Shown piece after piece: positions 6,689 through 64,000 of a stretch of DNA of 64,000 nucleotides. The position numbers were made by a program, and so were the translations under genes. The stretch comes from a virus: positions 1-64,000 of the IMG/VR virus record IMGVR_UViG_3300016476_000256. One strand, given 5' to 3'. The notes below the pieces were generated by a model, which searched no databases, had not been told where the DNA came from, and saw only the letters and a program-made list of their open reading frames with translations. Numbering within the stretch: position 1 is the stretch's first letter; each line of letters begins with the position of its first letter.

Positions 6689-7203
6689 TACTGATCATAT
6701 GCCATTCCAATACCACCTCTTACTCTACTAGATTGTTCTTCCTGTAGATCTTTATATGCACCTTTAAATGATGCTCTAATTTGCTCAAAGTTTTTTGCTG
6801 CAGCTACCAGAGAGTTAATATTACCATCTCTACCGTGTGAGATAGGTGTAGTCTCCATATATTTAGCTAATCTATCTAACATAGATGCAATACCTTTATA
6901 TGCTCTAGATGTAGGTGTTTCATACATTCTCTGGCAGAACTGTAGTGCTATAAAGATATCTTGATCTTCTGTAGAAAACTCTGCATCTATTTGTTCAAGT
7001 ATGAGAGACTCCTTATCTACTTCTGGTGTATAAAAGAATGGGTTTAAGTCTGGATTAGGGCAAGTCATATAAAACAAGTATTGGTATATCTTGATATAAT
7101 CATCAGGATAGTTATCCATTACCATCTTAAGTGCCTTTAGTGTATAGCAATGCTCTGTTGGAATTACTTTACCATTCTGTATGTCAAATAGTTTTACAAT
7201 CAT
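6688..7203 (-). CDS. hypothetical protein (possible small terminase subunit, by position only)
   Basis: 171 aa. Its stop overlaps the TerL start by 1 nt. No recognisable motif. Confidence 0.5.
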   Translation of the reverse strand: MIVKLFDIQNGKVIPTEHCYTLKALKMVMDNYPDDYIKIYQYLFYMTCPNPDLNPFFYTPEVDKESLILEQIDAEFSTEDQDIFIALQFCQRMYETPTSRAYKGIASMLDRLAKYMETTPISHGRDGNINSLVAAAKNFEQIRASFKGAYKDLQEEQSSRVRGGIGMAYDQ

Positions 7204-8033
7204 TTCTTTTTGATTTTATCTTTATTATCATGCAAATAATGCATAATAGCTGTTACTTCATCTTTTAGATATGGTATTTCCATTTGTATTACATCTTTAA
7301 CAATTGGGTCACCATTTTCATCATAGCTTGTTAATGGATAACCATATCTATCTTCTCCATCTGTTTCAAATAGTATATGATGAATAAACATTTTCCCAGG
7401 TTGTAATTTAGGATTATGCTTTAATATCATATACATATAGATACTTAACTGTAAACTGTAATGATTAAAATTACAATCATCTAAGTTAGATACAGGAGAG
7501 AGTAGCTTTTCAGAAACTCCCTCCCAATCTTTGTAAGATTCAGTCTTAATCTCTTTATTAGTTTTGTAATCAATAATGTTTACTTTACCATTAACTACTT
7601 CTACGAGATCTGACTGACCACAGATGCCTGCTGATTTAAGATAAACCATATGCTCTGGATACACGCCTGGTTCTAATTTTTGTGAAGGAGCTATCTTAAT
7701 TCCATTTGCTAAATCATTTGGTTTAAACACTGGAACTGTAACACCTTCTCTTTCTATTGAAGCTAAAGAACATAAGTCAGCTTCTCTTTGATTATGATAG
7801 AATGTTCCAAGAGTAACTGCTCTTTCTGATTCTGCATTCCAAATAGATATAATATCTTTTGGTGAGAAACCATACCACTTAGATCTCTTGTTCTTACAAA
7901 CCTTCTTTGCAATCTTCTCTGCATCAAATGGTTTTTTAAAATGAGATACTAGTGTAGTAACACTTATCCAATTAATCTCTGAGCCATCATTGCTTTTATA
8001 GCTATGATCTTTGGCATTAAATACTATACTCAT
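7200..8033 (-). CDS. PD-(D/E)XK (RecB/Cas4-like) nuclease
   Basis: GQSDLVEV...VNIIDYKTNK gives the D...(D/E)xK core. A downstream QLSIYMY segment matches the QxxxY motif typical of the RecB nuclease family. Confidence 0.65.
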   Translation of the reverse strand: MSIVFNAKDHSYKSNDGSEINWISVTTLVSHFKKPFDAEKIAKKVCKNKRSKWYGFSPKDIISIWNAESERAVTLGTFYHNQREADLCSLASIEREGVTVPVFKPNDLANGIKIAPSQKLEPGVYPEHMVYLKSAGICGQSDLVEVVNGKVNIIDYKTNKEIKTESYKDWEGVSEKLLSPVSNLDDCNFNHYSLQLSIYMYMILKHNPKLQPGKMFIHHILFETDGEDRYGYPLTSYDENGDPIVKDVIQMEIPYLKDEVTAIMHYLHDNKDKIKKK

Positions 8034-19138: not shown

Positions 19139-19336
19139 TTATTTAATCACTCTATTAAAAGTTATATTACTTTTTGCGCGTATGTCTTTATGAGTATACT
19201 GCCAGAACTCACCTGTTTCATTTATTATCACAGTGTATATAGTATCTGTTTCATGCCCATAGTCAGTAACTAACCAAATAACCCCCGGGCCTTTTGGTGT
19301 AATAACTTCTATTCTATTAGTAGGTTCATAGATCAT
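19139..19336 (-). CDS. hypothetical protein
   Basis: 65-aa ORF. ATGA overlap with the upstream gene. Confidence 0.5.
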   Translation of the reverse strand: MIYEPTNRIEVITPKGPGVIWLVTDYGHETDTIYTVIINETGEFWQYTHKDIRAKSNITFNRVIK

Positions 19337-20001
19337 GGTAGTTCCATTTTAATTTTTTCATCCCGTTCTACTAATGTCTTATATAACTCTATATCTGTTG
19401 ACCATTCCCTACCTGTCCAAAACTCAAACCCAGAGTAGTTAGATTTATATAAACAACACTGCTCATACCCACCCAACAAATATATATATTCACAGCCTAA
19501 TATTCTAGCTGTTTCACATTCATACATTTGAGCTACAGTACCCAGTGATAATTTAGGATTAGTATAATCCCATATAAACTGGTATGCTACAAATTGATCA
19601 TTGAATGTTTTGTATAAACTAATCCCTATCAAATCTCCATCCCAGTATTCTATAACAGAGCAATCTTCAAATGATGATAAACTAATATCCCGTTTAAACC
19701 CATGATAGTCACAATACTTCTCATACAGTTCAGAATACTTTTCTCTTTCAGCAGATACATTACCTGCTTGAACTATAACTCTCTTTGATAATTTCTTAGT
19801 TGTCTTTGATGGGGAGTACTTAGATAAATCAATCCGGGTACTTCTTTCATTATACCATTTCCCCTCCCAGGGAATCCATCCTTGTTTAAGTGCGTCTGTA
19901 GAAGATTCATTTTCTTCTAGTATACCATAAGCACAATTGACTATAACTTCTAGATCACTTACTTTACCAAAACCATTAATGTGATCAAAGTAGACTTTCA
20001 C
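19333..20001 (-). CDS. aminoacyl-tRNA-protein transferase-like protein (Bpt/ATE C-terminal family)
   Basis: STRIDLSKYSPSKTTKKLSKRV and GDLIGISLY...PKLSLGTVAQ...YIYLLGGYEQCCLYKSNYSGFEFWTGREW align by eye with the Bpt/ATE core (..RI.....S.SQKRL..K ; L.AV...D...SLGT....YLYLGY...C..M.YK..F.....W). Confidence 0.6.
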   Translation of the reverse strand: MKVYFDHINGFGKVSDLEVIVNCAYGILEENESSTDALKQGWIPWEGKWYNERSTRIDLSKYSPSKTTKKLSKRVIVQAGNVSAEREKYSELYEKYCDYHGFKRDISLSSFEDCSVIEYWDGDLIGISLYKTFNDQFVAYQFIWDYTNPKLSLGTVAQMYECETARILGCEYIYLLGGYEQCCLYKSNYSGFEFWTGREWSTDIELYKTLVERDEKIKMELP

Positions 20002-20444
20002 TTTCTAGAGAAGAAGTTTTTCTTTGGTGTTTCTACCTTAGTATCTTTAAGTTTCTCAATGATCTTATTAGCTTGTTCTTCAGCAAAGCCAATAACCTCT
20101 TCTTCCTTGTCTTTGATATTCCAATTATTTAATAGAATACTCATGTGCATAGTTTCATGCATAATAGCTGTGGCTTTCTCTGTAGTTGAATACCTCTTGA
20201 AAGTACCCATGTTCAAAAACAAGAAAGGTTTGTATGGATCTTTTGCTGTTAACTTCTTATCAGCGGGATCATAGTTAGTTAAACCATACATATAAACCCC
20301 ATTACCTTTAGTCTTATCTACTTCTTCAGCTTGTGCATCTGCTCTATTCAAGCCATGCATCTCTGGAACTTTGTAGTAATCAAAGATCTCGGTAGCATCA
20401 TTACCAATGAGCAGAATATACTTACCCATGTCAAACTTCTTCAT
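19998..20444 (-). CDS. small HExxH-motif protein (possible metallopeptidase fold)
   Basis: 148 aa with AIMHETMHMS. ATGA overlap with the transferase-like gene. Confidence 0.4.
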   Translation of the reverse strand: MKKFDMGKYILLIGNDATEIFDYYKVPEMHGLNRADAQAEEVDKTKGNGVYMYGLTNYDPADKKLTAKDPYKPFLFLNMGTFKRYSTTEKATAIMHETMHMSILLNNWNIKDKEEEVIGFAEEQANKIIEKLKDTKVETPKKNFFSRK

Positions 20445-20591: not shown

Positions 20592-20695
20592 GTAGCAAAT
20601 ATAATAAAATAACAAAGGCCCGGGCTTTCAACTCCAGACCTTTGCCATTGTTTATGTTAGCGTGACAAATATACAACTGTATTTGGATATTCCAA

Positions 20696-25850: not shown

Positions 25851-25924
25851 GGTCCTGTAGCTCAGCTGGATAGAGCAACTGCCTTCTAAGCAGTAGGTCT
25901 TTGGTTCGAATCCAAACAGGATCA
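25851..25924 (+). tRNA. tRNA-Arg: tRNA-Arg (anticodon UCU)
   Basis: Cloverleaf folded by hand: acceptor GGTCCTG/CAGGATC (one G-T pair), D arm GCTC/GAGC, anticodon stem ACTGC/GCAGT with loop CTTCTAA, variable loop AGGTC, T arm TTTGG-TTCGAAT-CCAAA, discriminator A. No encoded CCA. Confidence 0.9.
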
Positions 25925-25942
25925 CTATTATTAACTAAACCT

Positions 25943-27271: not shown

Positions 27272-27772
27272 ATGTATAAAATGGAAAAGTTAAAACAGGA
27301 AATTAGAAATTATCAGTTGAATGCAGGTAAAACTTACATGCAGTATGAATCAGATGGGTACTCTCAGTATCAAAACTATTTGTACAAAAGAGCACTGTAT
27401 GGTTTAAATTCACTGACAGAAGAAGAGCTTGCTTCTATGTGCAGCAAAAAGAAACAGAGAGTAATCAATGTTTATAAACGTGCACAGAAAGTACTTAATG
27501 TATTCAAGCAACAGGTAACAAACCAGTATAGTAACTACATCTTCAAAACTCTGTTTCCAAAGAGTCCATGGACTGATGATATGCTTGCATATTCAGAGAC
27601 AGATGAGAAGTTTACTAACACTTTAACTTTTAAAGATTTAAATATCTCTAAACAAGATATTATTGGTATCTTTATTACTGAAGGAATTCTTCCTAAAAAC
27701 TTTTTAAGTTTAAAGGAAGCACCAGTAACATTACCAAGATTAAAAACTAAAGAAAATGAAAACATTTTATGA
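27272..27772 (+). CDS. hypothetical protein
   Basis: 166-aa ORF. An alternative start exists at 27281. Confidence 0.6.
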   Translation: MYKMEKLKQEIRNYQLNAGKTYMQYESDGYSQYQNYLYKRALYGLNSLTEEELASMCSKKKQRVINVYKRAQKVLNVFKQQVTNQYSNYIFKTLFPKSPWTDDMLAYSETDEKFTNTLTFKDLNISKQDIIGIFITEGILPKNFLSLKEAPVTLPRLKTKENENIL

Positions 27773-30348: not shown

Positions 30349-30364
30349 TTCTTATATTTATTAT

Positions 30365-30619
30365 ATGGAAGATGTTAAGACACATAAACTTATTCTGCAT
30401 AATGACAAGAAAAATACATTTGCATATGTAATGGCTTGTCTCATAAGATTTTGTGAGCACCATCCAACACAAGCAGAACAGTGTGCTTTGCTTGCACATG
30501 AGATGGGAAGATGCACAGTAAAATCTGGTGACTTACTAGAAATGCTTGAGATTTCAGAATCTTTGCGTAATTTAGAGCTCAAAACATCAGTAGAACAGTA
30601 TGAGAGCAATATGCATTGA
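30365..30619 (+). CDS. clpS: ATP-dependent Clp protease adaptor ClpS homolog
   Basis: HKLILHNDKKNTFAYVMACLIRFCEHHPTQAEQCALLAHEMGRCTV aligns by eye with the E. coli ClpS core [24 protein letters not shown]....A.QLMLAVHYQGKAICGV. Confidence 0.8.
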   Translation: MEDVKTHKLILHNDKKNTFAYVMACLIRFCEHHPTQAEQCALLAHEMGRCTVKSGDLLEMLEISESLRNLELKTSVEQYESNMH

Positions 30620-30875
30620 TGCTTCAAATAAACCAAGCAAAGTACCTGAAAGTGAGTGGGTTATAGAAGGTGAAGTTTATACTATTACCAGAGTTGTTAG
30701 AATGGGATTACAGGATAATAAGTTTGGTGTTTTATTAAAAGAAGTTAAGCTATCAAGCAGTTCTTTTCCTTATGAGTTATATGACGCAGAAAGGTTTTTA
30801 CCAATTGATTTACTAGCAGAAGCATTTCAAGATAAAGAAGAAACAGTTAAAGAAGCTGACTTAGAACTAATTTAA
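30600..30875 (+). CDS. hypothetical protein
   Basis: 91-aa ORF. Confidence 0.55.
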   Translation: MRAICIDASNKPSKVPESEWVIEGEVYTITRVVRMGLQDNKFGVLLKEVKLSSSSFPYELYDAERFLPIDLLAEAFQDKEETVKEADLELI

Positions 30876-33353: not shown

Positions 33354-33572
33354 ATGATTATTTTAAGAAAAGGAGAGGAAAGGAAGGGATACAGAGTATT
33401 AATTGTAAAAGAGAATGAACAAGCCGGGACTAAGTTTGCAGTGCAACAGAAGGGCAAGTTCTTATTGTTTTTTACTAAATGGACATTTGTTAAGGATCAA
33501 GCTGGAGATATTAAGCTGTTTGATTCTAACAAGAACGCAAGTGCTTATATCAACTTTAAAAATAGGTGGTAG
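33354..33572 (+). CDS. hypothetical protein
   Basis: 72-aa ORF. Confidence 0.5.
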   Translation: MIILRKGEERKGYRVLIVKENEQAGTKFAVQQKGKFLLFFTKWTFVKDQAGDIKLFDSNKNASAYINFKNRW

Positions 33573-34429
33573 AAAAAGTCACGCGGAAAACATTTAAGAT
33601 AAGACCAAGTGGAAGGAGCACTGATTTCATTGCTCCTTCTTTTGGTTTTGGCTGTTTATTTAACTGTAGTTATTGCTACATGAAAAGACATAAGCCAGAA
33701 GGACTGTCTGTAGCAACAAATACTATGGATATCCTGACAGAGATTAATTCACATGTTTGGTTTGCTGATGTAGAGAAGCCTAACCAGACAGGAGAGTATA
33801 TTACTTACGATATCTCATGTAATGAGGACTTTGCTCTGCATGCTAAGTACTATGACTGGGAGACTATCTTTAAGTTCTTTAGAGATCATCCACTTGCTAT
33901 GGGTTCATTTGCTACTAAGTATGTAAATGCAGATTTGTTTGAATTTAATCCAGAAGGTAAGATTAGAATTAGATTTAGTCTGATGCCGGAGAAATGGAGA
34001 AAGATACTAGAACCTAATACCAGTCCAATTGATTTAAGATTAAATGCTGTACCAAGATTTATAGATGCTGGTTATGAAGTTCATCTTAACTTTAGTCCTG
34101 TAATAGTACATGACAATTGGTTAACTGAATATGAGTTTTTGTTTGATATAATTAAGAAACATGCAACATATAACAGTTGGATTACAGATGCTGTAAAAGC
34201 TGAAGTAATCTTTCTTACTCATAATGAACAAAAGCATCTGTATAATCTACAACATAAAATTCCAGGTGAGCATTTACTTTGGGCACCCAAAATACAAGAA
34301 GCTAAAACTTCTCAGTATGGTGGTAAGAACATCCGGTATGAGCACAACAGAAAGGCTGATTATATTAAGCAGTGGACTGAGTTACACGACAGTATAATAC
34401 CCTGGAATACAATCAGATATATATTTTAA
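33566..34429 (+). CDS. radical SAM enzyme of the spore photoproduct lyase (SplB) family
   Basis: CLFNCSYC gives the CxxxCxxC cluster. Collinear by eye with B. subtilis SplB: IAPSFGFGCLFNCSYCYMK vs AIPFATGCMGHCHYCYLQ, and KIRIRFSLMPEKWRKILEPNTSPIDLRLNAVPRFIDAGYEVHLNFSPVIVHDNW vs KTRFRFSINADYVIKNFEPGTSPLDKRIEAAVKVAKAGYPLGFIVAPIYIHEGW. GTG start. Confidence 0.85.
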   Translation: MVEKVTRKTFKIRPSGRSTDFIAPSFGFGCLFNCSYCYMKRHKPEGLSVATNTMDILTEINSHVWFADVEKPNQTGEYITYDISCNEDFALHAKYYDWETIFKFFRDHPLAMGSFATKYVNADLFEFNPEGKIRIRFSLMPEKWRKILEPNTSPIDLRLNAVPRFIDAGYEVHLNFSPVIVHDNWLTEYEFLFDIIKKHATYNSWITDAVKAEVIFLTHNEQKHLYNLQHKIPGEHLLWAPKIQEAKTSQYGGKNIRYEHNRKADYIKQWTELHDSIIPWNTIRYIF

Positions 34430-45186: not shown

Positions 45187-45611
45187 TGATTTTAACAAAA
45201 GAAGAAGTAAAGAATCTGATTGGAATGCTAAGATCTCCCGACAAGGATAATAGACTTGTAGCCTTTAAGATAATAGAGGATCTAAATCTTAAAAAACATG
45301 TTGGGGAGATAATGGTAATGTATAAATATGGTGAGTATAATTTAGAGAGTTGGGAAGCTGACTGTAAACCTGCTTATGAGTTTATAGTAAAGAGGATTGA
45401 AAAGTTCAATGGAGATTGGGAAAACAAACTAAGATCTGGAGAAATACTTTCACTAATGACAGCAAATAAATCTAGTAAGCAATCAATAGAATTATTCTTA
45501 GAATATTTTATTAGAGACATGACTAAAATGTTAGATGCTATGGGGTATCCCACAGATAAATTTGAGTTAGGTATAAAACTAAAAGAAGATGGACAAACAA
45601 AAGAGTCTTAG
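45186..45611 (+). CDS. hypothetical protein
   Basis: 141-aa ORF. Confidence 0.6.
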   Translation: MILTKEEVKNLIGMLRSPDKDNRLVAFKIIEDLNLKKHVGEIMVMYKYGEYNLESWEADCKPAYEFIVKRIEKFNGDWENKLRSGEILSLMTANKSSKQSIELFLEYFIRDMTKMLDAMGYPTDKFELGIKLKEDGQTKES

Positions 45612-46767
45612 TAAAATTAGTAAAGAGCTGATGTTAAAAGAGCCCTATTATGGGTTCTTTCTTATTATGCTCAACAAAGTATGGAGAAAAGATCTTCCTA
45701 CTGCAGGTGTGAGTAAGAATGGTATCAACTTTCAGTTGGCTATCAATGAGGATTTTTGGACAAGCCTGAGTGAGATGCATCAAATGGGATTACTAAAGCA
45801 TGAATTACTTCATATTGCTTTTGGTCATCTTACAAGTTTCAAGTCTTTTAAGAATCATAGACTTGCAAATGTAGCAATGGACATGGAAATCAATCAGTAT
45901 ATAGATGAAGATTGGTTACCAAAGGGAGGAATAGATATAAATGACTATGAAGATCTAAATCTTGAAAGAAAAGCTGGTTGTAGATATTACTATGACAAGT
46001 TGAATCAGTTTCAAGATGAGAAGGATAAGAATGGTAGCTGTGGTAATGAAGATATGGATAAGTTACTTGACCAAGTAGCTAATGGAGAAGGACCAGACCA
46101 CAGTACATGGGGAGAGTTTGAAGATCTTAGTGAAGCTGAGCAAAAGCTAATAGAGAAACAATTACAGAAAGTTTTGCAAGATGCTAAAGAACAGACTATC
46201 AAGAAGCGCGGAAATATTCCAGGTGAGATAGAAGGAGTAATTGTTATTGAGGAAATAGTTCCACCTAAGTTTGATTGGCGGGGATATATTAGAAGATTTA
46301 CTGGAGTGAGCACAAAGGTATTTACAAAGAAAATCCGCAGAAAAGAAAACAGGAGATATGATGAAAATCCAGGTCTGAAGATTAAGATGAGACAGCATAT
46401 GTTGTTGGCTATTGATACTTCAGGTTCTGTGAGTGATAATGAGCTACAAGAGTTCATGGGTGAGATTCACCATATTTACAAAACAGGTGTAGATGTGACT
46501 GTAATGCAGTGTGATACTAGCATTAGATCTATTGAGCCCTATAAAGGTAAGAATGAAATAAAAGTAGCAGGAAGAGGAGGAACAGAGTTTGATCCTGTCT
46601 TGGATTATTATAATGCTAACCAAAAGAAATATACTAGCCTGGTGTATTTTACTGATGGTGAGTGTTATACATCTGTAGTACCAAAAGGTAATGTCCTTTG
46701 GGTATTGTCAGAAAGATCACATATGAATGAAAGTTTACCAGGTAGAGTAATAAAATTAGAATTATAA
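45589..46767 (+). CDS. metallopeptidase-like (HExxH) + VWA domain protein (DUF2201-like)
   Basis: HELLHIAFGH in the N-terminal half. MIDAS-type LLAIDTSGSV in the C-terminal half. Confidence 0.7.
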   Translation: MDKQKSLSKISKELMLKEPYYGFFLIMLNKVWRKDLPTAGVSKNGINFQLAINEDFWTSLSEMHQMGLLKHELLHIAFGHLTSFKSFKNHRLANVAMDMEINQYIDEDWLPKGGIDINDYEDLNLERKAGCRYYYDKLNQFQDEKDKNGSCGNEDMDKLLDQVANGEGPDHSTWGEFEDLSEAEQKLIEKQLQKVLQDAKEQTIKKRGNIPGEIEGVIVIEEIVPPKFDWRGYIRRFTGVSTKVFTKKIRRKENRRYDENPGLKIKMRQHMLLAIDTSGSVSDNELQEFMGEIHHIYKTGVDVTVMQCDTSIRSIEPYKGKNEIKVAGRGGTEFDPVLDYYNANQKKYTSLVYFTDGECYTSVVPKGNVLWVLSERSHMNESLPGRVIKLEL

Positions 46768-46772
46768 AAATT

Positions 46773-47942
46773 ATGAACACAGTACAATTAAACGTAGAAG
46801 AGTTAAAAGGATTTATCCGTCACATGGTTAAAAATAACCAGCATATTCAAGCTGAAGGCAAAGTGCCTGTTGCAATTAATATAGAGGGTGATGCCGGTCT
46901 TGGTAAGACTTCTGCTATTATGCAGTTGGGTAAAGAGCTTGGTATGGATGTAGTAAAATTGAATCTATCTCAGATAGAAGAGCTAGGTGACCTTGTTGGT
47001 TTTCCTGTGAAAGAATTCTTGGTAAGAAATAAAGAAGGTAAACAAAGATGGATAACTGAAGCTCAAGTTCCTGGAGCTCTGAAAGCAGAATATACTGTTG
47101 TTGATAAGAGAATGGCTCATGCTGCTCCTGAGTGGATTCAAGGTAAAGGTGAGGGTGGCTTCTTGGTATTGGATGATTATACTCGTGCAGACCACAGATT
47201 TATGCAAGCTACTATGGAGATTTTAGATAGACAAGAATATGTTTCTTGGAAGCTACCTAAGAACTGGCATGTTATCTTAACCACTAATCCAGACAATGGT
47301 GACTATAATGTTACTAGCTTAGATGTTGCTCAGAAGACTAGATTTATTTCTGTAGAGATGAAGTATGATTCTGATGTATGGGCTAAGTGGGCAGAGAAAG
47401 CAGGGATAGATGGTAGATGTATTAACTTTATGTTGATGCATCCTGAGCTTGTAACTCAAAGAGTTAACCCAAGATCTATTACTACATTCTTTAATGCTAT
47501 TAGTTCTATTCCTAAGTTTGAAGATGATCTACCTCTAATCCAAATGATTGGTGAGGGTTCTGTGGGAGCAGATTTTAGTTCTATGTTTACTATGTTTATC
47601 AATAATAAACTAGATAAGTTGATTTCTCCTGAAGATATCTTGACTAAAGATAAGGATTATGTAATGGGAGCTTTGACAAATGCTGTTGGTAAGGATGATG
47701 ACTTTAGAGCAGACATCTCTAGTATTATTGCAACACGGGTAATTAACTATTCACTTGTTCAAGCTGAGAAAGGTGCAATTGCTCCAGCAGTAATTGACAG
47801 ATTAGCAATTCTAACTACTGAATGTGATGCATTTACAAATGACCTTAGATATTATATGGTCAAAGAAATAGTAAATGGAAACAAAGTTAAGTTTGCTAAG
47901 CTTATGCAGAATACGAATGTGGTGAAGATGGCTATCCAGTAA
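46773..47942 (+). CDS. MoxR-like AAA+ ATPase
   Basis: Walker A GDAGLGKTS, Walker B FLVLDDYTRA. Paired with the VWA gene, as in MoxR-VWA systems. Confidence 0.7.
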   Translation: MNTVQLNVEELKGFIRHMVKNNQHIQAEGKVPVAINIEGDAGLGKTSAIMQLGKELGMDVVKLNLSQIEELGDLVGFPVKEFLVRNKEGKQRWITEAQVPGALKAEYTVVDKRMAHAAPEWIQGKGEGGFLVLDDYTRADHRFMQATMEILDRQEYVSWKLPKNWHVILTTNPDNGDYNVTSLDVAQKTRFISVEMKYDSDVWAKWAEKAGIDGRCINFMLMHPELVTQRVNPRSITTFFNAISSIPKFEDDLPLIQMIGEGSVGADFSSMFTMFINNKLDKLISPEDILTKDKDYVMGALTNAVGKDDDFRADISSIIATRVINYSLVQAEKGAIAPAVIDRLAILTTECDAFTNDLRYYMVKEIVNGNKVKFAKLMQNTNVVKMAIQ

Positions 47943-55119: not shown

Positions 55120-55137
55120 TCTTCCCCTTATTTTTTT
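55102..55137. terminator. bidirectional terminator between convergent blocks
   Basis: GGGGAAG/CTTCCCC stem (55107-55113/55121-55127), flanked by AAAAA on the 5' side and TTATTTTTTT on the 3' side. Confidence 0.7.
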
Positions 55138-58100
55138 ACTGTAAATTTTCAAATGCTTGGTATTTCTTAATAGCCCAAATACCACCTTCTGTTAATTCAT
55201 TTTTACCTTTAAGTCCATAAAGTGACCCTAAGTGATTCCAAAGTTTATATTCTCCTTCTTTTTGCCATCTATAAGGTCCTATATCTTGACTATATCTAGC
55301 TTCTTTTTCATCACCTTCTGCAATATTATAAAGATCCTGACCTATTTTAGTATACAACACAACTGTATTATCTAATGCTATTGTTGTTGTTTTAAAATAC
55401 TTTGTTCCTTGCTCTGGAAGATAAATAGGTACAAAAGATTGGTTTTCCATTTTAGTCATTATCAAAAGATAAAGCAAATGGTTTTCAAGTTGACCTTGTG
55501 TTGTTGTACCTCTTGCTTTTAATTTTTTCCACTTATCTTCATCATCTGGGTCATATCCAAAATACCATGACCCAATAATCATTGCTAATAAGAAGTATCC
55601 AACATTTTCAACAATTACTTTTTTGGCTGCAGCTTTTTCATCCTCAGTCATTATTGCAGTATCTTTACCTACTGATCTAATAAGTCTCAAGGCATTCTGT
55701 AGAGTATTCATGTAATAACCTTTATCTAAAGTATTAGTATCCCAGTTATATACATATCCACCTCTATTACCTTTATCAGTATCTATTTGAAACTTATCAA
55801 GGAACATTCCTGTAGCAAATCTTTTGTAGAAAGTAAATGCGCGGTATCCTAAATATTTTTCAGCTTGTGGTGTATCAAATACATCCATTAAACCTGTTGT
55901 CTTTTTCTGTGCAGATTGTAGTAAGAATTTCATATTTAAGAATTCTTCCATGTTACCTACAGTGATTTTATCTCCGGGTTCAAGTTTTGATATATCAGTT
56001 ATACCACTTCTTCTTTTAACTTGTTCAGGTGTTATATTATATCTTTTAGCAATACTTTCAAAAGTATCTCCACGTTTATATTCATGATCTACTTTTTTAT
56101 AGTCATATGCTGGATCAATACCTTCTTTTAGTTTTAAAATACCTTTATCATCTGTTTCCCATGCATCAGCATAAGCTATATCCTCAGAAGATCCTGCTTG
56201 AGGAATGTATTTATTATACATCATACCCCAGAACATTTCTAAAGCTGCCTCAAGTTCCATTGTTCTTCTAAAGTCATATGCATAAGTTAAATCTGCTAAG
56301 TCTTTTAGTTTTGATCTAGAAGATGATTTACCAAAGTTTTTATCAAACATTGCTGTAGGATCCATTCTTTCTACTAACTGTATGTCAGCTGATTTAATTC
56401 CTTGCTCATAAATATCTTTGAAGACCCAGTACATTGCAGATTGTTTAGCTTTTGCATATCCTTTAGCTAATGACATTGGTGTAACATTTTTACCACCTGC
56501 TGCGTATATAGCATTTTGATAAAGCATCCCCCAGCGGTTTTTAATAGCTGACTGTGGATCAAATGCAATAAATGCTCTTGATGATCTTCTAAATAAACCT
56601 TGAACAATTTTAGTTATCCATGCATTTTCTTCATCAAATGTTCCAGTAGTTTTACCATAGAAGATTTTTCTGACCTGATGTTTTACTGCACCTAGTCTTC
56701 TATTATCCTCTTTACTGATAAATTCTTTTTTACCTGTTCTTTGATATTCTTGTTTATCAATTTTTGATAAATCTTTAATACCATTCTGATCAAGAACACT
56801 TTCTAAAGCTTCAGCAATTGGTTCATTTTCTAATAATACTTTTTGTTCTTCTAGAGAGAGTAGATAGTCATACATTCCTCTTAGTACATCTTTAGAGACG
56901 CGCTTTTGATCTAAATTATATAAACCTCTAATTCTAACTTTATTAACTGGTCTTCCATCTAAGTCTGTTGTAACTAAATTAAAATTAGCATCATGATTAA
57001 ATCCAAACTCTGAATCATCCACATCTCTACCAAACCAGGTTTTCCATAAACCTTTAAATCCACCAACTTTTTCTAATAAGTTTTCTTTAGCTTCTCCAGA
57101 TGCAACATATTCTAAATTACCTCTTTTTCTAAACCTTGGCATTTCTAAGTACAATCTACTTGAAACAGGTTTATCTTTTTGAATTTGTAGCATAGATTCA
57201 GTAATTGCATTTAATAACTGAAACTCTGGACCACCAGCATTTTGCATTTCTAAATATTCTTCATTTTGATATTTTTTATCAAATGCAGAATTAGGATCAC
57301 CAATTTTATACTCCCTAGGTAAATAGTTACCTTTATTATCTACAATGGTTCCAACATAATTATCCCAACTTTCACCTCTTGGTATTGTTAAGAATTCACT
57401 TTTTATTCTACTCTTAGTATATTTACCAGCAGGTCTTCCTATAATTTTTCTTTCTGTCTTAGTTAGGGGGTCAATAATTTCTGTTGTAACATAATGATCA
57501 GTATTATTTGGAACCTTCATTGTCCAAGCAGCAATTCTAAAGTTTTTAATTACATCCCTATTTAAGTCTATATCAAATACTTCTTTTTGATAATGATTCC
57601 TACCATACCATTTTGCAAACTCTGGATTTTCTAAAGCTTTAACTAAATTTTCTCCATTTATCCACTTATCTGCATTGTCTAAATTTATTTCAGGAAGTTC
57701 CATATCTCTTATAGCATAGTTAAATGCTTCAAGATAATAGTCTGTTGGAATTTTACTTTCAAGTTCTCTTAGTTCTGCAAATCTTGCTTTAAGTGCTGCT
57801 AATTCTGCAGTAGTTAATCCCATTTCATTTTTAATAGAAAGTATTTCTGCATAATCTTTTCTTTCTTCTGGAGTTAATTTAGTTCCAGCAGCAGCTTTTG
57901 CAATGTATGAATCATACCTTTTAGTTTGATCTTTTGTCAATCCAGTCTTTCTATCAAACTGTTCTTCTAATGCTACTATTTCATCTTCTATTTTCTTTAA
58001 AAGATTAATTTGTTCTGGAGAAAGGTTTAACCCGTTAGGTTGTCCATTAGCATCAGATGTAGAAGTAGATAAATTAAATCTAGTTTTATAAAGTTCAGCT

Positions 58101-61100
58101 AAGTCTAATGCTATTTGAGATTTTTTATTAGCAACCTTTGAAGTTATTTTTCTGATTTCTTCTAATATTCTTTTTCTTTCAGCATAAAACTTAGATGTAT
58201 AGGCTATTTTAAAATTAGACTTTAAGAATTTACTAATTTGTTTTTGATATTCATTTTGAGTTTCCCCTTCTTTAGGTTCAGCTTCCGGGTCTATACCTTT
58301 AGCTATCAATCTATTATGAAAATTATCTAGATCTTTTTGTACTCTATCTACATCTACATCATAGTCATACATGTTTCTGGATAACTCTCTGTGTTTTTTT
58401 CTTAGTAAAACTCTTTGAAGTTCTTCACCTTCTTTTGGCTCACCTTGTAGATTATATATATCAAATAATCTGTTATACTCTAATCTTGCTTGTTCTTCTG
58501 AATCATTAAAGTCATATAAGTCTTCTAGGTCTAAGAAGTTAACATTTTTTAAAGTATTCATTTTAGAAAGCTGATTCTGTCTTTCTACATAAGAATCAAA
58601 AGCAACTTTAGGAGATACTGTAATTTCTTTTCCTGTAAATGGATCAGTTACTACAGCCCCTGTGTTCCAGATTTTTTGAATATCATAGAAAGCTTTTGTA
58701 TATCTTCTATGCATGTATTTTTCTTCAAAGTCTTGAATAGCCTGATAAGCATCTTTCATACCTTGCTTATCATTTCTATTTCTAGCCTCTTTAAAGTTAT
58801 TTTGAAGTTTAGCTAAATCATATCTATAGTTTTTAAACTTGTTCTTAAAAGTCCAAACTTCTTTTTCTTGAAAGTCTCCATTATTGTCTACATAACCAAC
58901 CTTATCCAAAAACAATAGCATGTCACCAAGCTGATTTGTTTTAAACGGTTGATAACCAACAGCATTTAATAGTGGTAATAACTTGTATGTTATTTCATCT
59001 GCCTGATCTTGGGCAGCTTGTTGAGCTTCAAATATTTTAGTTTTTACAAATCTTGTAAATGAACCAGCAATAGGATCATCCATATTTGCATAAGGAGTGA
59101 TAAATGCAGTATAGAATGATATGTCTCCTCTTTCTCCTCTTAAGTATTCTTCAATTTGTTCTTTACCTAAGCGTTTGAACATGTATTCATTTACTGCTTT
59201 AACAACCAACTTAGCTCTTCTAGGAGTAATATTTTTTAAACCTATATTCTCTAATGTATATGTTTCTCTACCTTTAGTATTAACTACATTTTCTATAAAG
59301 GTTTCTATATCTTTTTCAGAATATCCTTCTGCTTTTAATATTATACCAACTCTTTCCTTCAAGTTTTTTTCAATAGAACCCTGCATTAACTCTGTTTGAT
59401 CTGCAAAGAAGTCAGAGATAAACTTAAATTCTATTTCCGCTATTTTTTTATTAGCTTTTTCAACTGAGTTTTGTATTGAGTTAAGTGTCTTATAAAACAA
59501 ACTTTCTTTATCAAGCGGTAAATCTTTTAACTTATCAAGTAAGGCCTGTTGATTTTTTAAAGATGTTTTATAATAAATAACTCTTGAAATATTTTCATTA
59601 GTTTGACTTTCTACTTTTGTTAAATCATCAAGAATTTTTTCAATACTTTCAACAAAGGTTTCTATTTCATTTAATGAGTTTGTAAGTGCTAATGCTCTAA
59701 GTCTTGTTTCAGCTTCTATATCTTCTACAGCTCTAATAACATTTTCTGGATCTATATCTTCTGCTTTTACATTGACTGTTTGATACTTAGAAAGCTCTTC
59801 ACGGATGTAATTTAAAATCTTTGTTCCACCACTTTTAACCAATAGATCTTTTACTTTAAATGGAACTTGCTTCAAACTATTAAGCTGACGCATGTTATTA
59901 TCATAGATTCTATTGATCTCTTCTTGTAATCTTTCAACTGGAATACCTTTAAGCTCATCAATCCTTCTAGCTACTTCACTCTCTAGTTTTTTAAACTCAG
60001 GATTATTAACATCAAAAATTTCAAAAGATTCTATCTCAAACTCCTCATTAGCAAGCATGTTAGCTAACTGATCTAAAGTAGTACTTTGACTTAGTTTATT
60101 TAAATTAATCTTTGAAGCTACTTGTGGACTAAATGCTTTTCTAATTACTTTCTTAATGGCAAACATTAATTTGTCTAAGAACTTTTTAAATTGAGAAGAT
60201 GGAGCTGTACCTTTTCTTTCAATAGAGGTAACTAATGCTTCTCTAATAAAAGCTTTTGACCCTTTCTGAAGATTAGGGTATACTCTTTCTATATATGCTA
60301 TAACATCCAGACCTTCTGGTGTCATGCTTAATTCAGCATATAGATTATCAAATAGCTGAGGGTTCTCTTGTTCAATACCTTTTATTAAGGGATGTGCAAA
60401 CTCATGTAATACATTATCTACTGATAAATTACCTTCTACAAAGTATACTTTATTACCAAAGAAGAATGCTGGTTCTCCGGCATATTCTGTTGGAGTATTT
60501 TTTAATAATATTTCAGCAGCTTCAGGAGTTACTAACTCCCATTCTACATTTAAAGAATCCGATAATTTATTTGCAAGTGTAGTAGCAATTTCTATTGCTC
60601 TTTCACTTTCAGCATTATATGTATCTGCAGAAGCTTCTTCAGCTGTCATTCTAGTTATAATATCTGCTTGTCTTCTAAACTCTGCTTCTGTAATATTTGG
60701 ATCTACACCCAATGTTTCTTCAGAGTTTCTTCCAAACAGGTAGTCATCACTATAATCTACACCTGCTCTTTTAGCATCTTCCTCTTGTATCTTTCTTGCC
60801 TCCTCTTCATATAATTGTTCTTCAGGAGTTTTTTCTCTTACCTCTGGTTTTATATAAGCTCCAGTCTTAATTATATTTTCTAAATCTGACACAGGTTTAT
60901 TTGATTGAGTAGCATCTACAATTCTAGACTGTGCTCTTTCTATTTTACCTTCAATGTCTAATTTACCACGAACTTTTCTAAGACCCCATGTATGTAAATC
61001 TGCTTGACCAATTCTTTCTACATTATATGTCATATATACTGTAGAGATATTATTATTTCTGTTGTAATTATTTTTTCTAGAAACAGCTTGAAATAATTTT

Positions 61101-61333
61101 ATTTTTTGACTTTCACTAATTTCTTTTGAGAAACTTTTACCAATTTCTTCTTTGACTTTAGATATTGGTATTAGACCTAATGCTTCTTTAACATTTTTAT
61201 TTTTAATAAAATCATTATAGGCAGGTGTTTCACTATTAAAAAATTCCTGGATGAGATTAGAGACTTTTGTTTCTCCAAAATCTTTTACCATTTTTTGTAC
61301 ATCAGGATCACCAAAGTTTAAACAGAATGACAT
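55136..61333 (-). CDS. giant virion-associated/ejection-type protein candidate (HExxH motif, LysM domain, C-terminal TM segments)
   Basis: 2065-aa uninterrupted ORF. HEFAH at 60392-60406. LysM-type segment YKRGDTFESIAKRYNITPEQVKRRSGITDISKLEPGDKITVG at 55955-56080. Hydrophobic YFLLAMIIGSWYFGY near the C-terminus. Long coiled K/E-rich middle. Confidence 0.55.
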   Translation of the reverse strand: MSFCLNFGDPDVQKMVKDFGETKVSNLIQEFFNSETPAYNDFIKNKNVKEALGLIPISKVKEEIGKSFSKEISESQKIKLFQAVSRKNNYNRNNNISTVYMTYNVERIGQADLHTWGLRKVRGKLDIEGKIERAQSRIVDATQSNKPVSDLENIIKTGAYIKPEVREKTPEEQLYEEEARKIQEEDAKRAGVDYSDDYLFGRNSEETLGVDPNITEAEFRRQADIITRMTAEEASADTYNAESERAIEIATTLANKLSDSLNVEWELVTPEAAEILLKNTPTEYAGEPAFFFGNKVYFVEGNLSVDNVLHEFAHPLIKGIEQENPQLFDNLYAELSMTPEGLDVIAYIERVYPNLQKGSKAFIREALVTSIERKGTAPSSQFKKFLDKLMFAIKKVIRKAFSPQVASKINLNKLSQSTTLDQLANMLANEEFEIESFEIFDVNNPEFKKLESEVARRIDELKGIPVERLQEEINRIYDNNMRQLNSLKQVPFKVKDLLVKSGGTKILNYIREELSKYQTVNVKAEDIDPENVIRAVEDIEAETRLRALALTNSLNEIETFVESIEKILDDLTKVESQTNENISRVIYYKTSLKNQQALLDKLKDLPLDKESLFYKTLNSIQNSVEKANKKIAEIEFKFISDFFADQTELMQGSIEKNLKERVGIILKAEGYSEKDIETFIENVVNTKGRETYTLENIGLKNITPRRAKLVVKAVNEYMFKRLGKEQIEEYLRGERGDISFYTAFITPYANMDDPIAGSFTRFVKTKIFEAQQAAQDQADEITYKLLPLLNAVGYQPFKTNQLGDMLLFLDKVGYVDNNGDFQEKEVWTFKNKFKNYRYDLAKLQNNFKEARNRNDKQGMKDAYQAIQDFEEKYMHRRYTKAFYDIQKIWNTGAVVTDPFTGKEITVSPKVAFDSYVERQNQLSKMNTLKNVNFLDLEDLYDFNDSEEQARLEYNRLFDIYNLQGEPKEGEELQRVLLRKKHRELSRNMYDYDVDVDRVQKDLDNFHNRLIAKGIDPEAEPKEGETQNEYQKQISKFLKSNFKIAYTSKFYAERKRILEEIRKITSKVANKKSQIALDLAELYKTRFNLSTSTSDANGQPNGLNLSPEQINLLKKIEDEIVALEEQFDRKTGLTKDQTKRYDSYIAKAAAGTKLTPEERKDYAEILSIKNEMGLTTAELAALKARFAELRELESKIPTDYYLEAFNYAIRDMELPEINLDNADKWINGENLVKALENPEFAKWYGRNHYQKEVFDIDLNRDVIKNFRIAAWTMKVPNNTDHYVTTEIIDPLTKTERKIIGRPAGKYTKSRIKSEFLTIPRGESWDNYVGTIVDNKGNYLPREYKIGDPNSAFDKKYQNEEYLEMQNAGGPEFQLLNAITESMLQIQKDKPVSSRLYLEMPRFRKRGNLEYVASGEAKENLLEKVGGFKGLWKTWFGRDVDDSEFGFNHDANFNLVTTDLDGRPVNKVRIRGLYNLDQKRVSKDVLRGMYDYLLSLEEQKVLLENEPIAEALESVLDQNGIKDLSKIDKQEYQRTGKKEFISKEDNRRLGAVKHQVRKIFYGKTTGTFDEENAWITKIVQGLFRRSSRAFIAFDPQSAIKNRWGMLYQNAIYAAGGKNVTPMSLAKGYAKAKQSAMYWVFKDIYEQGIKSADIQLVERMDPTAMFDKNFGKSSSRSKLKDLADLTYAYDFRRTMELEAALEMFWGMMYNKYIPQAGSSEDIAYADAWETDDKGILKLKEGIDPAYDYKKVDHEYKRGDTFESIAKRYNITPEQVKRRSGITDISKLEPGDKITVGNMEEFLNMKFLLQSAQKKTTGLMDVFDTPQAEKYLGYRAFTFYKRFATGMFLDKFQIDTDKGNRGGYVYNWDTNTLDKGYYMNTLQNALRLIRSVGKDTAIMTEDEKAAAKKVIVENVGYFLLAMIIGSWYFGYDPDDEDKWKKLKARGTTTQGQLENHLLYLLIMTKMENQSFVPIYLPEQGTKYFKTTTIALDNTVVLYTKIGQDLYNIAEGDEKEARYSQDIGPYRWQKEGEYKLWNHLGSLYGLKGKNELTEGGIWAIKKYQAFENLQ

Positions 61334-61338
61334 AATCT

Positions 61339-64000
61339 TTATCTTTTACAATTCATATAATAATCTAGAGCATCAAAGATATCTAAATCTGGGTTTTTAG
61401 TTGCTTCATTTGTAAACCAATTTTTAAATTCTGGTTTATTTAGTGTGTTGATTTTTTCTTGCTTTTCCTGTGAGGTTTCTAATTCTATTTCCTGACTTTC
61501 CATTTCTTCATTGTACATGAACTCATTTAAGTTTGTTCTATTTAAGAAACTATCAGTTAATACTTGTAACACCTGCTTATCAGACAATAGATTTAAGATA
61601 AAGTTAGTGAACTTTTTCCACCAATTGTAGGCATCTCCTTTTTGTTTTACAACTTGTTCTCCAATTGCCTGTACTAATGCCTCTTCACTACCAAATCTTT
61701 TAATACCTTCTTGAACAATAGGCGTATTTCTAAACCATGCAATATAGTGGTGAGCATACTCATGTGGTAATGTATCTTGTCTTTGATTTACAGCATCAAT
61801 TAATACTGTCATAGCTTTAATATTAGCTTGACCTATAATTTTATTAGCTTCATTTTTTTGTAATAATACATTTTGTAAATCTCTAGCTTGGTTAATTGTT
61901 ACCTCATTCCAAGTATTACCATACTCATCTGTAAATTTTGTAGGTGTATAGCCTTGTTTTTTAAGAACATTAGCCACTACATTTTCATAGAAGTTGTAAA
62001 TTGGTTTTAAAGCACCAAATCCTTCTGGTCCTTCTACTCTTTCAAGTTCTTGTTTAAGTTGGTTTATTTCTCTCTCTGTAGCTTCTCTTTGAAGTTCTCC
62101 TTTTTTACCTTTATCATATATCTCTTTAGTTATTTCTATAACTGATTCCCCTCCAAATTGACCGGCTTGTAAATCTTCCCAATAATATTTTCCATTTTCT
62201 TCAAAGTAATAGTTAGGAGATAATTCATAGTTATAGTCATCCATTCCTTCTTCAAGCTCTTTAATCCTATCTTCTTTTTGTTTTTTAAACTCCTCTAAAG
62301 TAGTATGACCTTCAACCTTACTAGCTGTATCACCAGAAGGAAACAACACTTTTTCATATCCTTTCTTAGCACTATCTTGTATAATAGATTTAATAAAGAA
62401 GTTTACCCAGTTATTGTCTTTGTTTAGAAGTTGTAGGAATTGATTGCCTTTTTGAGGATCTTCAGTTAATCCTAAAAATTTAGCTGCTTCTTTTCTAGTA
62501 GGAAATGTATCTAATATTCCAATTCTACCATTATGAGCTTCCCATTCTTTACCATTAAATTCAATCCACTCTTCATCTCCACTATAAGAATCTGTACCTA
62601 TTTCACTAATTAAATCCTCTCTATCTCTACCTTTCTGAAATAAATCAGATTGTACTTCTAGTATTCTACGGGTTTTAGTAGGTGTTCCTTTTTGTAAATA
62701 ATTTATATTACCATATTGATTATCATATATAGCATATACATCAGTATCTGTTAAATCATCTCTTTTATGAGTTATACCATCAGAGTCTATACTATACCAG
62801 ATATTATTTCTTTTTTCCCAAATACTCCCATAATTACCTTTAAAAGATAAAGGATATTCTTTAGATGTAATAAATTCATCATCACTTCTAAACCAACCTA
62901 TACCATTCTCTGTAGCAAACTGAGCATGCCCTTTAATATTAGGAACAATACCCGGTGTTGTTACTTCTTGTTCAGTATAGTTAGTACCACCTGGGACTTT
63001 TAGATTAGAATAGTATTGTGTATTTTCTCCTTCTGAACCTACAATAAAAGATTCTCTTTGTTCTAAACCTGAACTTCCCCAACTATCATCTTCAAATCTT
63101 GTACCTGTTATTTTCCATTGTTTATTATCAATAGTAATATAATCTCCAATTTTTTTATTAGGATATTTATCAACCCAAACATTACCAAAAGCATCTTCAA
63201 TTTTATCTTTAGAAGTATTAATCTCAATAGTATAGTTATAAGTAGAAGCAATAGCATATGCAAGTTGAGCATTAAAAGGTATGCCTTCAAAGTATGGCAT
63301 TGTTTCTATTACTTTTTCTATAAGTTCTTTTTGATTTTTAGGTATCTGAAGTTCTGTTAAGATTTTATCCAGTGTCCATTTATTTTTAATACCCTTAGCA
63401 AATACTTGATCAGCTTTTGGTGTAAGTAAAATATCAACTGTTTTAATCCTATAGTTTACTTGATTATTGTACTGCTCTTGATTAAGTACATTATTACCTT
63501 CTTCCCAAACTGGAGTATTGCTAATGTTTAATTTAATCTCAGGATATAGTTTTTCAAGTTTGTCTTGTATTTTTTTAGCAAGTTCTTTATCAAACTTCTG
63601 ATTTGGATTTATACTGCGTTGATTAAATAAATCTAATTGCTCACCTGGTTGTGGACCTTGTTTAGGTTGAGTAGTTCTAGATTTACTCCATGTTCCTATT
63701 TTTACACCATCTATTGTAATCTCAGAATAGTTATAACCTTTGGCTTCAAGATTTTGGAACAATCTTTTTTCTCCGGTGTTGTAAGTATTTTTAGAATCAA
63801 AAGTATAAGCTTTATTATCTACGAGAATAGTTGCTCCAGCTTCTATGGCTTTAATTGCTTCTCTGATTGTCTTATCCTGTTCTCTTTTAACAATAGCTAC
63901 ATCACCTCTTAGTCCAGGAACAGATACAAAGATTACATCAGTACCACTGTATTTACCAGTATTTGCCAAAATGCCAACTTGCTCTCTATATATTTGAGTA
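61339..64000 (-). CDS. second large protein with HExxH motif (5' end probably outside the window)
   Basis: The track gives 876 aa from a TTG at 63969, but the frame stays open to position 64000. HEYAH at 61750-61764. 5-nt gap to the 2065-aa ORF. Confidence 0.55.
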   Translation of the reverse strand, partial: TQIYREQVGILANTGKYSGTDVIFVSVPGLRGDVAIVKREQDKTIREAIKAIEAGATILVDNKAYTFDSKNTYNTGEKRLFQNLEAKGYNYSEITIDGVKIGTWSKSRTTQPKQGPQPGEQLDLFNQRSINPNQKFDKELAKKIQDKLEKLYPEIKLNISNTPVWEEGNNVLNQEQYNNQVNYRIKTVDILLTPKADQVFAKGIKNKWTLDKILTELQIPKNQKELIEKVIETMPYFEGIPFNAQLAYAIASTYNYTIEINTSKDKIEDAFGNVWVDKYPNKKIGDYITIDNKQWKITGTRFEDDSWGSSGLEQRESFIVGSEGENTQYYSNLKVPGGTNYTEQEVTTPGIVPNIKGHAQFATENGIGWFRSDDEFITSKEYPLSFKGNYGSIWEKRNNIWYSIDSDGITHKRDDLTDTDVYAIYDNQYGNINYLQKGTPTKTRRILEVQSDLFQKGRDREDLISEIGTDSYSGDEEWIEFNGKEWEAHNGRIGILDTFPTRKEAAKFLGLTEDPQKGNQFLQLLNKDNNWVNFFIKSIIQDSAKKGYEKVLFPSGDTASKVEGHTTLEEFKKQKEDRIKELEEGMDDYNYELSPNYYFEENGKYYWEDLQAGQFGGESVIEITKEIYDKGKKGELQREATEREINQLKQELERVEGPEGFGALKPIYNFYENVVANVLKKQGYTPTKFTDEYGNTWNEVTINQARDLQNVLLQKNEANKIIGQANIKAMTVLIDAVNQRQDTLPHEYAHHYIAWFRNTPIVQEGIKRFGSEEALVQAIGEQVVKQKGDAYNWWKKFTNFILNLLSDKQVLQVLTDSFLNRTNLNEFMYNEEMESQEIELETSQEKQEKINTLNKPEFKNWFTNEATKNPDLDIFDALDYYMNCKR

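Follow-up and report, generated by a model that had tools for sequence, protein, structure and literature searches.

Does a bacteriophage carry its own aminoacyl-tRNA-protein transferase, and if so, what would such an enzyme modify? The question is raised by a 64,000-nucleotide stretch of viral DNA (IMG/VR record IMGVR_UViG_3300016476_000256, positions 1 to 64,000; hereafter the window), on which an initial annotation, made from the sequence alone, had assigned an open reading frame (ORF) of 222 amino acids (aa) to the family of bacterial Bpt and eukaryotic ATE1. In the N-degron pathway, the part of the writer falls to the aminoacyl-tRNA-protein transferases: enzymes of the ATE1/Bpt kind move an amino acid from an aminoacyl-tRNA to an acceptor amino group, classically that of a protein N terminus. 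We know of no prior description of them in bacteriophages. The reading that we favor, with a probability of about one half, is that the gene encodes a virus-restricted, minimal enzyme of the ATE1/Bpt branch that works with a 65-aa partner, orf65, and that would add a basic amino acid to an N terminus other than Asp or Glu in host takeover or counter-defence.

The ORF is present on the minus strand as annotated (Table 1), and both sequence profiles and a predicted structure place its product close to ATE1. It matches Pfam ATE_C (PF04377) with an E value of 7.4e-9 and 36.7 bits, above the gathering cut-off of 25, and 65 of the 107 members of the extended family match the same model; FemAB, LPG_synthase_C and Leu_Phe_trans gave no profile match to the 222-aa protein at E<=1. 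Seven NCBIfam models of bacterial arginyltransferases align to residues 54-200, with E values down to 3.7e-8. In the other direction, a profile of 25 family members matches yeast ATE1 (E=5e-5), and a profile of the 107 more diverse members of the extended family matches the Kluyveromyces lactis enzyme, klAte1 (E=3.4e-9). The phage segments FIWDY..LSLGT and YIYLLGGYEQCCLYKSNY align to FIWDP..WSLGK and YYYLGYYIEDCPKMNYKANY, respectively, of yeast ATE1. An AlphaFold2 model computed from the family alignment reached a predicted local distance difference test (pLDDT) of 87 and a predicted template modelling (TM) score of 0.84, and in a Foldseek search of the PDB with this model the first 30 ranks were all ATE1 (E 6e-9 to 4e-6; query TM 0.53-0.67). 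Structures of FemX, of the MprF/L-PGS C-domains and of L/F-transferase ranked below them, at E values of approximately 1e-5 to 1e-6, and the Fem/GNAT alternative raised in the initial annotation thus describes a more distant relation. The annotation had also reasoned that a missing profile match or an unrelated fold would speak against its assignment; what we found is an ATE_C match and an ATE1-like fold. At the level of the GNAT-like superfamily, profiles and predicted fold therefore identify the 222-aa protein as a true but distant relative of ATE1 and Bpt.

The residues that are kept point to the donor. Residue roles were taken from K. lactis Ate1 (PMC9351520); the PDB chain is numbered as native plus 4, and every named residue fell on the expected letter. 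Glu277 of klAte1 is essential for recognizing the Arg of Arg-tRNA, with E277K and E277A dead and E277D like the wild type (PMC9351520). Residues W260, E277, Y303 and K304 of klAte1 correspond to W144, E161, Y185 and K186 of the phage protein, of which the first is nearly invariant and the other three invariant in the family alignment (A1), K186 being conserved at more than 90% across the extended family. The donor pocket S255/S273/E277/Y289 becomes A139/A157/E161/I173, the last position being Ile or Val in the family, and a manual alignment anchored on R102 of klAte1 and R56 of the phage protein sets the basic tRNA-binding helix (K112/K115/K119/R120) opposite K66/K69/K73/R74 with no gap. Judged from these alignments, the phage enzyme has conserved the ATE_C positions through which yeast Ate1 touches the 3' end of the tRNA and the amino acid to be transferred, and we infer that it is catalytically active and tRNA-dependent. 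As the invariant E161 is the counterpart of the Arg-reading Glu of Ate1, at a position where the Leu-transferring Bpt has Gln, a basic amino acid is the probable donor, and Arg the likeliest one. As a separate matter, a phage-encoded tRNA-Arg with anticodon UCU was considered as a dedicated donor and rejected: most related loci have it at a corresponding position, whether they carry the transferase or not, and it is found in most relatives that have no transferase and missing from several that have one. It is probably a codon-usage tRNA.

The acceptor side is altered. Arg80 of klAte1, the first Arg of the G[FW]RRSG motif, is essential for binding Asp and Glu N termini (PMC9351520). The phage protein has GWIPWEG at this position, placing Ile43 opposite Arg80 in a manual, non-structural alignment, and the equivalent residue is Ile or Pro in the family. 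With the Arg80 equivalent lost in this way, the acceptor is probably not the canonical Asp or Glu N terminus.

The family appears to be confined to viruses. A HMMER search of 1.84 billion cluster representatives returned 355 clusters at E<=1e-3, all of approximately 200-280 aa and without the Cys residues of the cluster; a link to the canonical cellular Bpt was sought in the same search, which gave only this short clade without the cluster, and was dropped. The family is abundant in IMG/VR, where 494 viral contigs carry a relative. A motif scan of 185,579 reference genomes, one per species, found a clade member on three contigs, one of them a 117.8-kb contig of phage-genome size within a metagenome-assembled genome (MAG). 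The other two are short MAG contigs (L200 and L201) whose ATE-like proteins stand at 27-29% identity and whose gene content we read as T4-like, the translated ORFs including a portal and structural genes of that type; orf65 does not lie beside the ATE-like gene on either. These T4-like contigs without an adjoining orf65 show that the family reaches beyond crAss-like phages and that the partner is not universal. Searches with tblastn of 50,697 GenBank phage records, using the transferase of the window and a marine relative, gave no match, no PHROG family was found for the transferase, and its best hit in BFVD, from an uncultured Caudovirales phage, is an uncharacterised protein. The homology is caught by automated annotation, as the Joint Genome Institute pipeline already labels proteins of the clade arginyltransferase; targeted full-text literature searches retrieved no paper describing a phage ATE or Bpt, and a virus-only family of this kind appears to be undescribed in the searchable literature. 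Within the family, sequences have diverged to less than 30% identity.

We examined the genomic setting in 81 related loci, which span 57-96% identity and are not all independent, with flanks of 10 kb on either side; co-occurrence of the transferase with the more distant ClpS gene was judged through a conserved anchor gene lying between the two (alignment A2). The conserved partner of the transferase in these loci is orf65, a gene missing from the initial annotation. In 77 of the 79 loci whose flanks are long enough, it is the next gene downstream and has the same orientation. The two exceptions represent a single arrangement on two contigs (187 kb for the longer one), in which a divergent 87-aa orf65-like gene (hhalign E=3.9e-6) stands immediately upstream on the opposite strand. 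The annotation had instead described an ATGA overlap with an upstream 148-aa ORF carrying an HETMH motif (HExxH148 below). That ORF is present as described, with an overlap of four bases that reads GTGA, the start codon of the transferase being GTG; ATGA is the overlap of the transferase stop with the start of orf65. We found 932 homologues of orf65, which at 71-97% identity is more conserved than the transferase. It has no sequence match in Pfam, NCBIfam, PHROG or the PDB, and its AlphaFold2 model is all-beta and of low confidence (pLDDT 63); the Foldseek matches of the model are Tudor/SH3-like and all non-significant, so this label is tentative.

The transferase and orf65 behave as an accessory unit. 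By our own tally the pair is found in approximately one third of the anchor-sampled loci whose flank reaches the site. In loci without it, the gene of a 210-aa protein takes its place between HExxH148 and the conserved gene that comes next. This protein belongs to phrog_3704 (E=6e-62), a family of the category "moron, auxiliary metabolic gene and host takeover"; it is annotated as ferredoxin and has no Pfam match. The gene fills the slot between the HExxH148 and orf157 homologues in L126, L131, L132, L137, L143, L175, L180 and L189, is present in 26 loci altogether, never together with the transferase pair, and is absent from the 64-kb window. In a second genomic setting, the pair follows DNA polymerase A. 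The exchange of slots with phrog_3704 and the second context are the signature of an exchangeable, accessory host-interaction module. PADLOC gave no match for the transferase, orf65, HExxH148, ClpS or the alternative 210-aa protein. All four genes of the window that we followed are under purifying selection, with median pairwise ratios of nonsynonymous to synonymous substitution rates (dN/dS) of 0.11 for the transferase, 0.09 for orf65, 0.09 for HExxH148 and 0.24 for ClpS, figures that are rough as dS is near saturation.

In the mechanism that we propose, the transferase would take a basic amino acid, most likely Arg, from an aminoacyl-tRNA and attach it to a protein N terminus other than Asp or Glu. 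The small protein orf65 could serve as a specificity or tRNA-binding subunit or could itself be the target, and the pair would act early in infection, in host takeover or counter-defence. Given matching Clp machinery in the host, it might create or mask degradation signals read by the ClpS-like protein of the phage.

Several observations weigh against this reading. The NCBIfam arginyltransferase models score the phage protein at 21-33 bits, their equivalog cut-offs being 170-358, and the best score against the Bpt equivalog is 33.3 bits with a cut-off of 252. ATE_N (PF04376) matches neither the transferase nor any of its 107 relatives, and the CxxC/CC motifs of the Cys cluster are absent from the transferase, as the initial annotation had seen, and from all 148 family representatives. 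In a manual alignment, a gap of approximately 9 residues falls where ATE1 has ..RNCCRLY.. and removes the CC pair, leaving the four-Cys Zn/Fe-S site (C23, C26, C95 and C96 in klAte1) unmatched. The motif G[FWYML]R[RK]xG was found in 0 of the 148 representatives. With ATE_N, the metal site and the acidic-acceptor Arg all missing, we file the protein as a viral variant of the aminoacyl-tRNA transferase kind and not as an orthologue of arginyltransferase or Bpt; the loss of the ATE_N acceptor-binding features also means that the acceptor may be something other than a protein N terminus. The donor assignment hangs on one conserved Glu, and the role given to orf65 is a guess about a protein of poorly predicted fold. 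Apart from these points, a promoter-like site of Bacteroidota type (TTG-N19-TAnnTTTG) lies upstream of the leftward operon of orf51, HExxH148, the transferase and orf65; the pattern occurs twice in the whole window, with 2.16 occurrences expected by chance, the position alone being suggestive.

The initial annotation had noted that the phage encodes ClpS, the reader of N-degrons, and the gene is borne out by Pfam ClpS (PF02617; E=4.1e-13, 49.3 bits, cut-off 23), its scores against the NCBIfam equivalogs being far under the cut-offs. A 91-aa ORF on the other strand (30361-30636, -) overlaps the ClpS ORF fully, is slightly longer and would be the choice of a longest-ORF caller; Pfam backs the plus-strand reading. 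The ClpS of the window has matches in just three GenBank phages, all of them huge and uncultured. The N-degron pocket of Escherichia coli ClpS consists of N34, D35, D36, T38, M40 and H66. In the phage proteins the equivalents of N34 and D35 are conserved, H66 is mostly kept, D36 is present in most homologues and replaced by K in the window, T38 is changed to N or H, and M40 to F. In the sampled crAss-like loci, a helicase, ClpS and the next gene follow one another in this order whenever the downstream flank extends that far, whether the transferase is present or not, and ClpS is therefore a core gene of the phage lineage, independent of the transferase. In 66 of 66 unique homologues approximately 8 residues precede the first strand of the core, leaving no N-terminal extension; the C-terminal tail is of approximately 20 aa. 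In E. coli, the N-terminal extension of approximately 25 residues enters the ClpA channel, and blocking its entry inhibits ClpS-assisted degradation (PMC9663308); as the phage protein has no such extension, delivery by the E. coli mechanism is doubtful, and a role as decoy or inhibitor is equally possible.

These features bear on the idea, put forward in the initial annotation, that a writer and a reader of N-degrons on one phage direct targeted degradation. A transferase relative and a ClpS homologue are indeed encoded together; the targeted degradation is weakened by a core ClpS without the extension and by the loss of Arg80. In a fuller form, a widespread group of freshwater crAss-like phages would rewrite the N-degron code of their hosts, orf65 guiding the addition of a basic residue to N termini other than Asp or Glu on chosen host or defence proteins, and ClpS either rerouting these proteins to a Clp protease of the host or blocking N-degron recognition by the host itself. 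We regard this as an attractive minority hypothesis, possible and on present evidence unlikely.

HExxH148 is the element on which the full model of the initial annotation depends, and we find that model quite doubtful: HExxH148 would be a peptidase exposing new N termini, which the transferase would mark and phage ClpS would deliver to host ClpAP. The three genes are all in the window, the HExxH motif and a downstream acidic EE..AEE patch are kept down to 28% identity, a small zincin is plausible from these motifs, and ClpS, found in every sampled crAss-like locus whose flank reaches its position, retains the N34, D35 and H66 equivalents. A group of eight loci (L139-L142, L146, L177, L115 and L116) even has a divergent HExxH148 (28-33% identity) on the rightward strand approximately 1.3 kb downstream of ClpS, with none at the head of the leftward operon. 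Synteny speaks against the model, as the coupling of HExxH148 to the transferase claimed in the annotation is not supported: across 70 loci it is directly upstream of the transferase in 37, lies downstream of orf65 in 3 and is missing from 29, it stands without an adjoining transferase, among other neighbours, in 17 of 23 anchor-sampled loci of genomes without a transferase at that site, and, highly conserved in this phage group, it is with 773 homologues as compared with 192 for the transferase far more widespread. We therefore rejected it as the partner of the transferase. The protein of the window has no Pfam, NCBIfam, PHROG or PADLOC match, and thus no peptidase family, and four divergent homologues have no Pfam match either; the transferase has lost the residue for acidic N termini, the ClpS is the transferase-independent core protein without the ClpA-channel extension (PMC9663308), and among the window proteins scanned (the larger and most of the mid-sized ORFs) there is no Clp ATPase or ClpP. 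Elsewhere in the window, the ORF at 45589-46767 (+) encodes a putative metallopeptidase of the DUF2201_N type joined to a VWA-like domain; it matches PhageMetallopep as well and is a second candidate protease of the phage, better supported than HExxH148; the next ORF, 46773-47942 (+), has the look of an AAA+ (MoxR-like) ATPase by reading of its sequence and no Pfam match.

An acceptor that is not a protein at all, such as a peptidoglycan precursor, a membrane lipid or a small molecule modified in the manner of FemX, MprF or L-PGS, would turn the enzyme into a tool for envelope remodelling during infection or for superinfection exclusion. The significant structural matches to FemX, the MprF C-terminal domain, L-PGS and L/F-transferase (E ~1e-5 to 1e-6) are consistent with this, as are the missing ATE_N features for protein acceptors and weak matches of 14 of the 107 family members to Acetyltransf_6 and of 1 of 107 to LPG_synthase_C. 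All profile matches above threshold are, however, to ATE_C or arginyltransferase and none to FemAB or Leu_Phe_trans, ATE1 outranks every Fem or MprF structure, and the transferase has no membrane domain, its partner being a small, soluble, predicted beta protein and no cell-wall enzyme, which makes such an acceptor improbable. Least likely of all, a protein that has lost catalysis and with orf65 binds or sequesters a specific (aminoacyl-)tRNA or some host factor, for instance as an answer to a tRNA-targeting defence or as a way of adjusting translation, would fit the lost metal module and acceptor pocket, the retained basic tRNA-binding helix and an accessory distribution with alternative cassettes at one slot that is typical of counter-defence genes, but would not be expected to keep the donor-pocket Glu and the catalytic Tyr-Lys pair of klAte1 invariant at less than 30% identity, nor do its genes have PADLOC matches.

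Table 1. Features discussed in the text; coordinates refer to the window except for L200 and L201, which are separate contigs
Feature	Coordinates	Strand	Basis
orf65, 65 aa, start overlaps transferase stop (ATGA)	19139..19336	-	conserved synteny
ATE1/Bpt-like aminoacyl-tRNA transferase, 222 aa, GTG start	19333..20001	-	ATE_C profile, AlphaFold2/Foldseek
HExxH148, 148 aa, HETMH motif	19998..20444	-	ORF, conserved HExxH
Bacteroidota-type promoter-like site	20666..20695	-	pattern match
tRNA-Arg(UCU)	25851-25925	+	anticodon UCU
ClpS homologue, 84 aa	30365..30619	+	Pfam ClpS
Distant ATE-like gene, L200	375-1148		marine MAG contig
Distant ATE-like gene, L201	2969-3781		marine MAG contig

The window is DNA of an uncultured crAss-like phage. 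It encodes a portal protein and a large terminase (phrog_6547, E=5e-91, and phrog_6681, E=2e-60, respectively), together with tail-fibre proteins, a DNA polymerase of family A and an Amidase_2 lysin; the terminase is approximately 24% identical to those of crAss-like phages of Flavobacterium, Cellulophaga and Bacteroides, and no close GenBank phage was found at the DNA level. The G+C content is approximately 33%, and contigs related to this phage measure 90-127 kb. Weak evidence for a host among the Bacteroidota comes from the 117.8-kb relative, whose contig had been placed in the bin of a Chitinophagaceae MAG from Lake Mendota. On the minus strand, a 2065-aa ORF (55136-61333) with a LysM domain as its only match adjoins an ORF of at least 876 aa (61339-63969) that has no match, and the two products may be giant virion proteins typical of crAss-like phages. 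The phage also encodes a radical SAM protein resembling spore photoproduct lyase (33566-34429, +; Pfam SPL, E=9e-21). In locus L097, the homologue (7173-7646) of the window gene 27272-27772 has an in-frame TAA at a codon that is Glu in its relatives, which could reflect a pseudogene, a sequencing error or recoding.

If host proteins are indeed modified, the transferase would represent a new way for phages to take over a host or to counter its defences. Its presence together with a core phage ClpS makes the question of phage manipulation of N-degron proteolysis directly testable. Phage ClpS itself has precedents, as jumbo phages carry their own homologue, proposed to bring targets to host ClpAP (PMC7824862, Iyer et al. 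2021; Atu_ph07, PMC6102473). In contrast to these, the ClpS described here belongs to a crAss-like phage of approximately 115-125 kb, is a core gene of its lineage without the N-terminal extension, and in some of the genomes, a subset, is accompanied by an ATE/Bpt-like gene; the jumbo-phage survey (PMC7824862) mentions neither "arginyl" nor "aminoacyl-tRNA". FemX, the MprF C-domain and L/F-transferase (Aat) share the GNAT-like superfold with the phage transferase and give significant Foldseek matches, but they rank below every ATE1 chain, have no above-threshold profile match and use other acceptor-binding modules.

Closer in size is Bpt, the Leu-tRNA-protein transferase for Asp and Glu N termini (NCBIfam PRK01305), which like the phage enzyme is a single polypeptide, of approximately 230-250 aa. 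The hydrophobic pocket of the phage protein (Ala, Ala, aliphatic) resembles A168, A185 and L201 of Bpt, whereas Glu replaces its Gln189; the phage protein also differs in having no ATE_N match or Cys motif, and its clade resides in viral contigs instead of cellular genomes, paired in crAss-like loci with a 65-aa gene. The best structural match is ATE1 (K. lactis, S. cerevisiae and human; 7WG1, 7TIF, 8E3S and 8TZV). With it the phage transferase has in common the GNAT-like ATE_C core, the motifs FIWD..SLG and YxYLGxY..C..YK, the equivalents of Trp260, Glu277, Tyr303 and Lys304, and a basic helix after the Arg102 equivalent. At 222 aa, as compared with approximately 500 in ATE1, it is without the large C-terminal region, the four-Cys site, of which the 9-residue deletion takes the CC pair, and the G[FW]RRSG motif with Arg80, and its donor pocket has Ala/Ala/Ile(Val) at three of four positions where ATE1 has Ser/Ser/Tyr. 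It is the smallest ATE-like architecture that we have encountered, with no metal cluster and a new small partner, and as such the family offers a compact model for donor and acceptor specificity in ATE-like enzymes.

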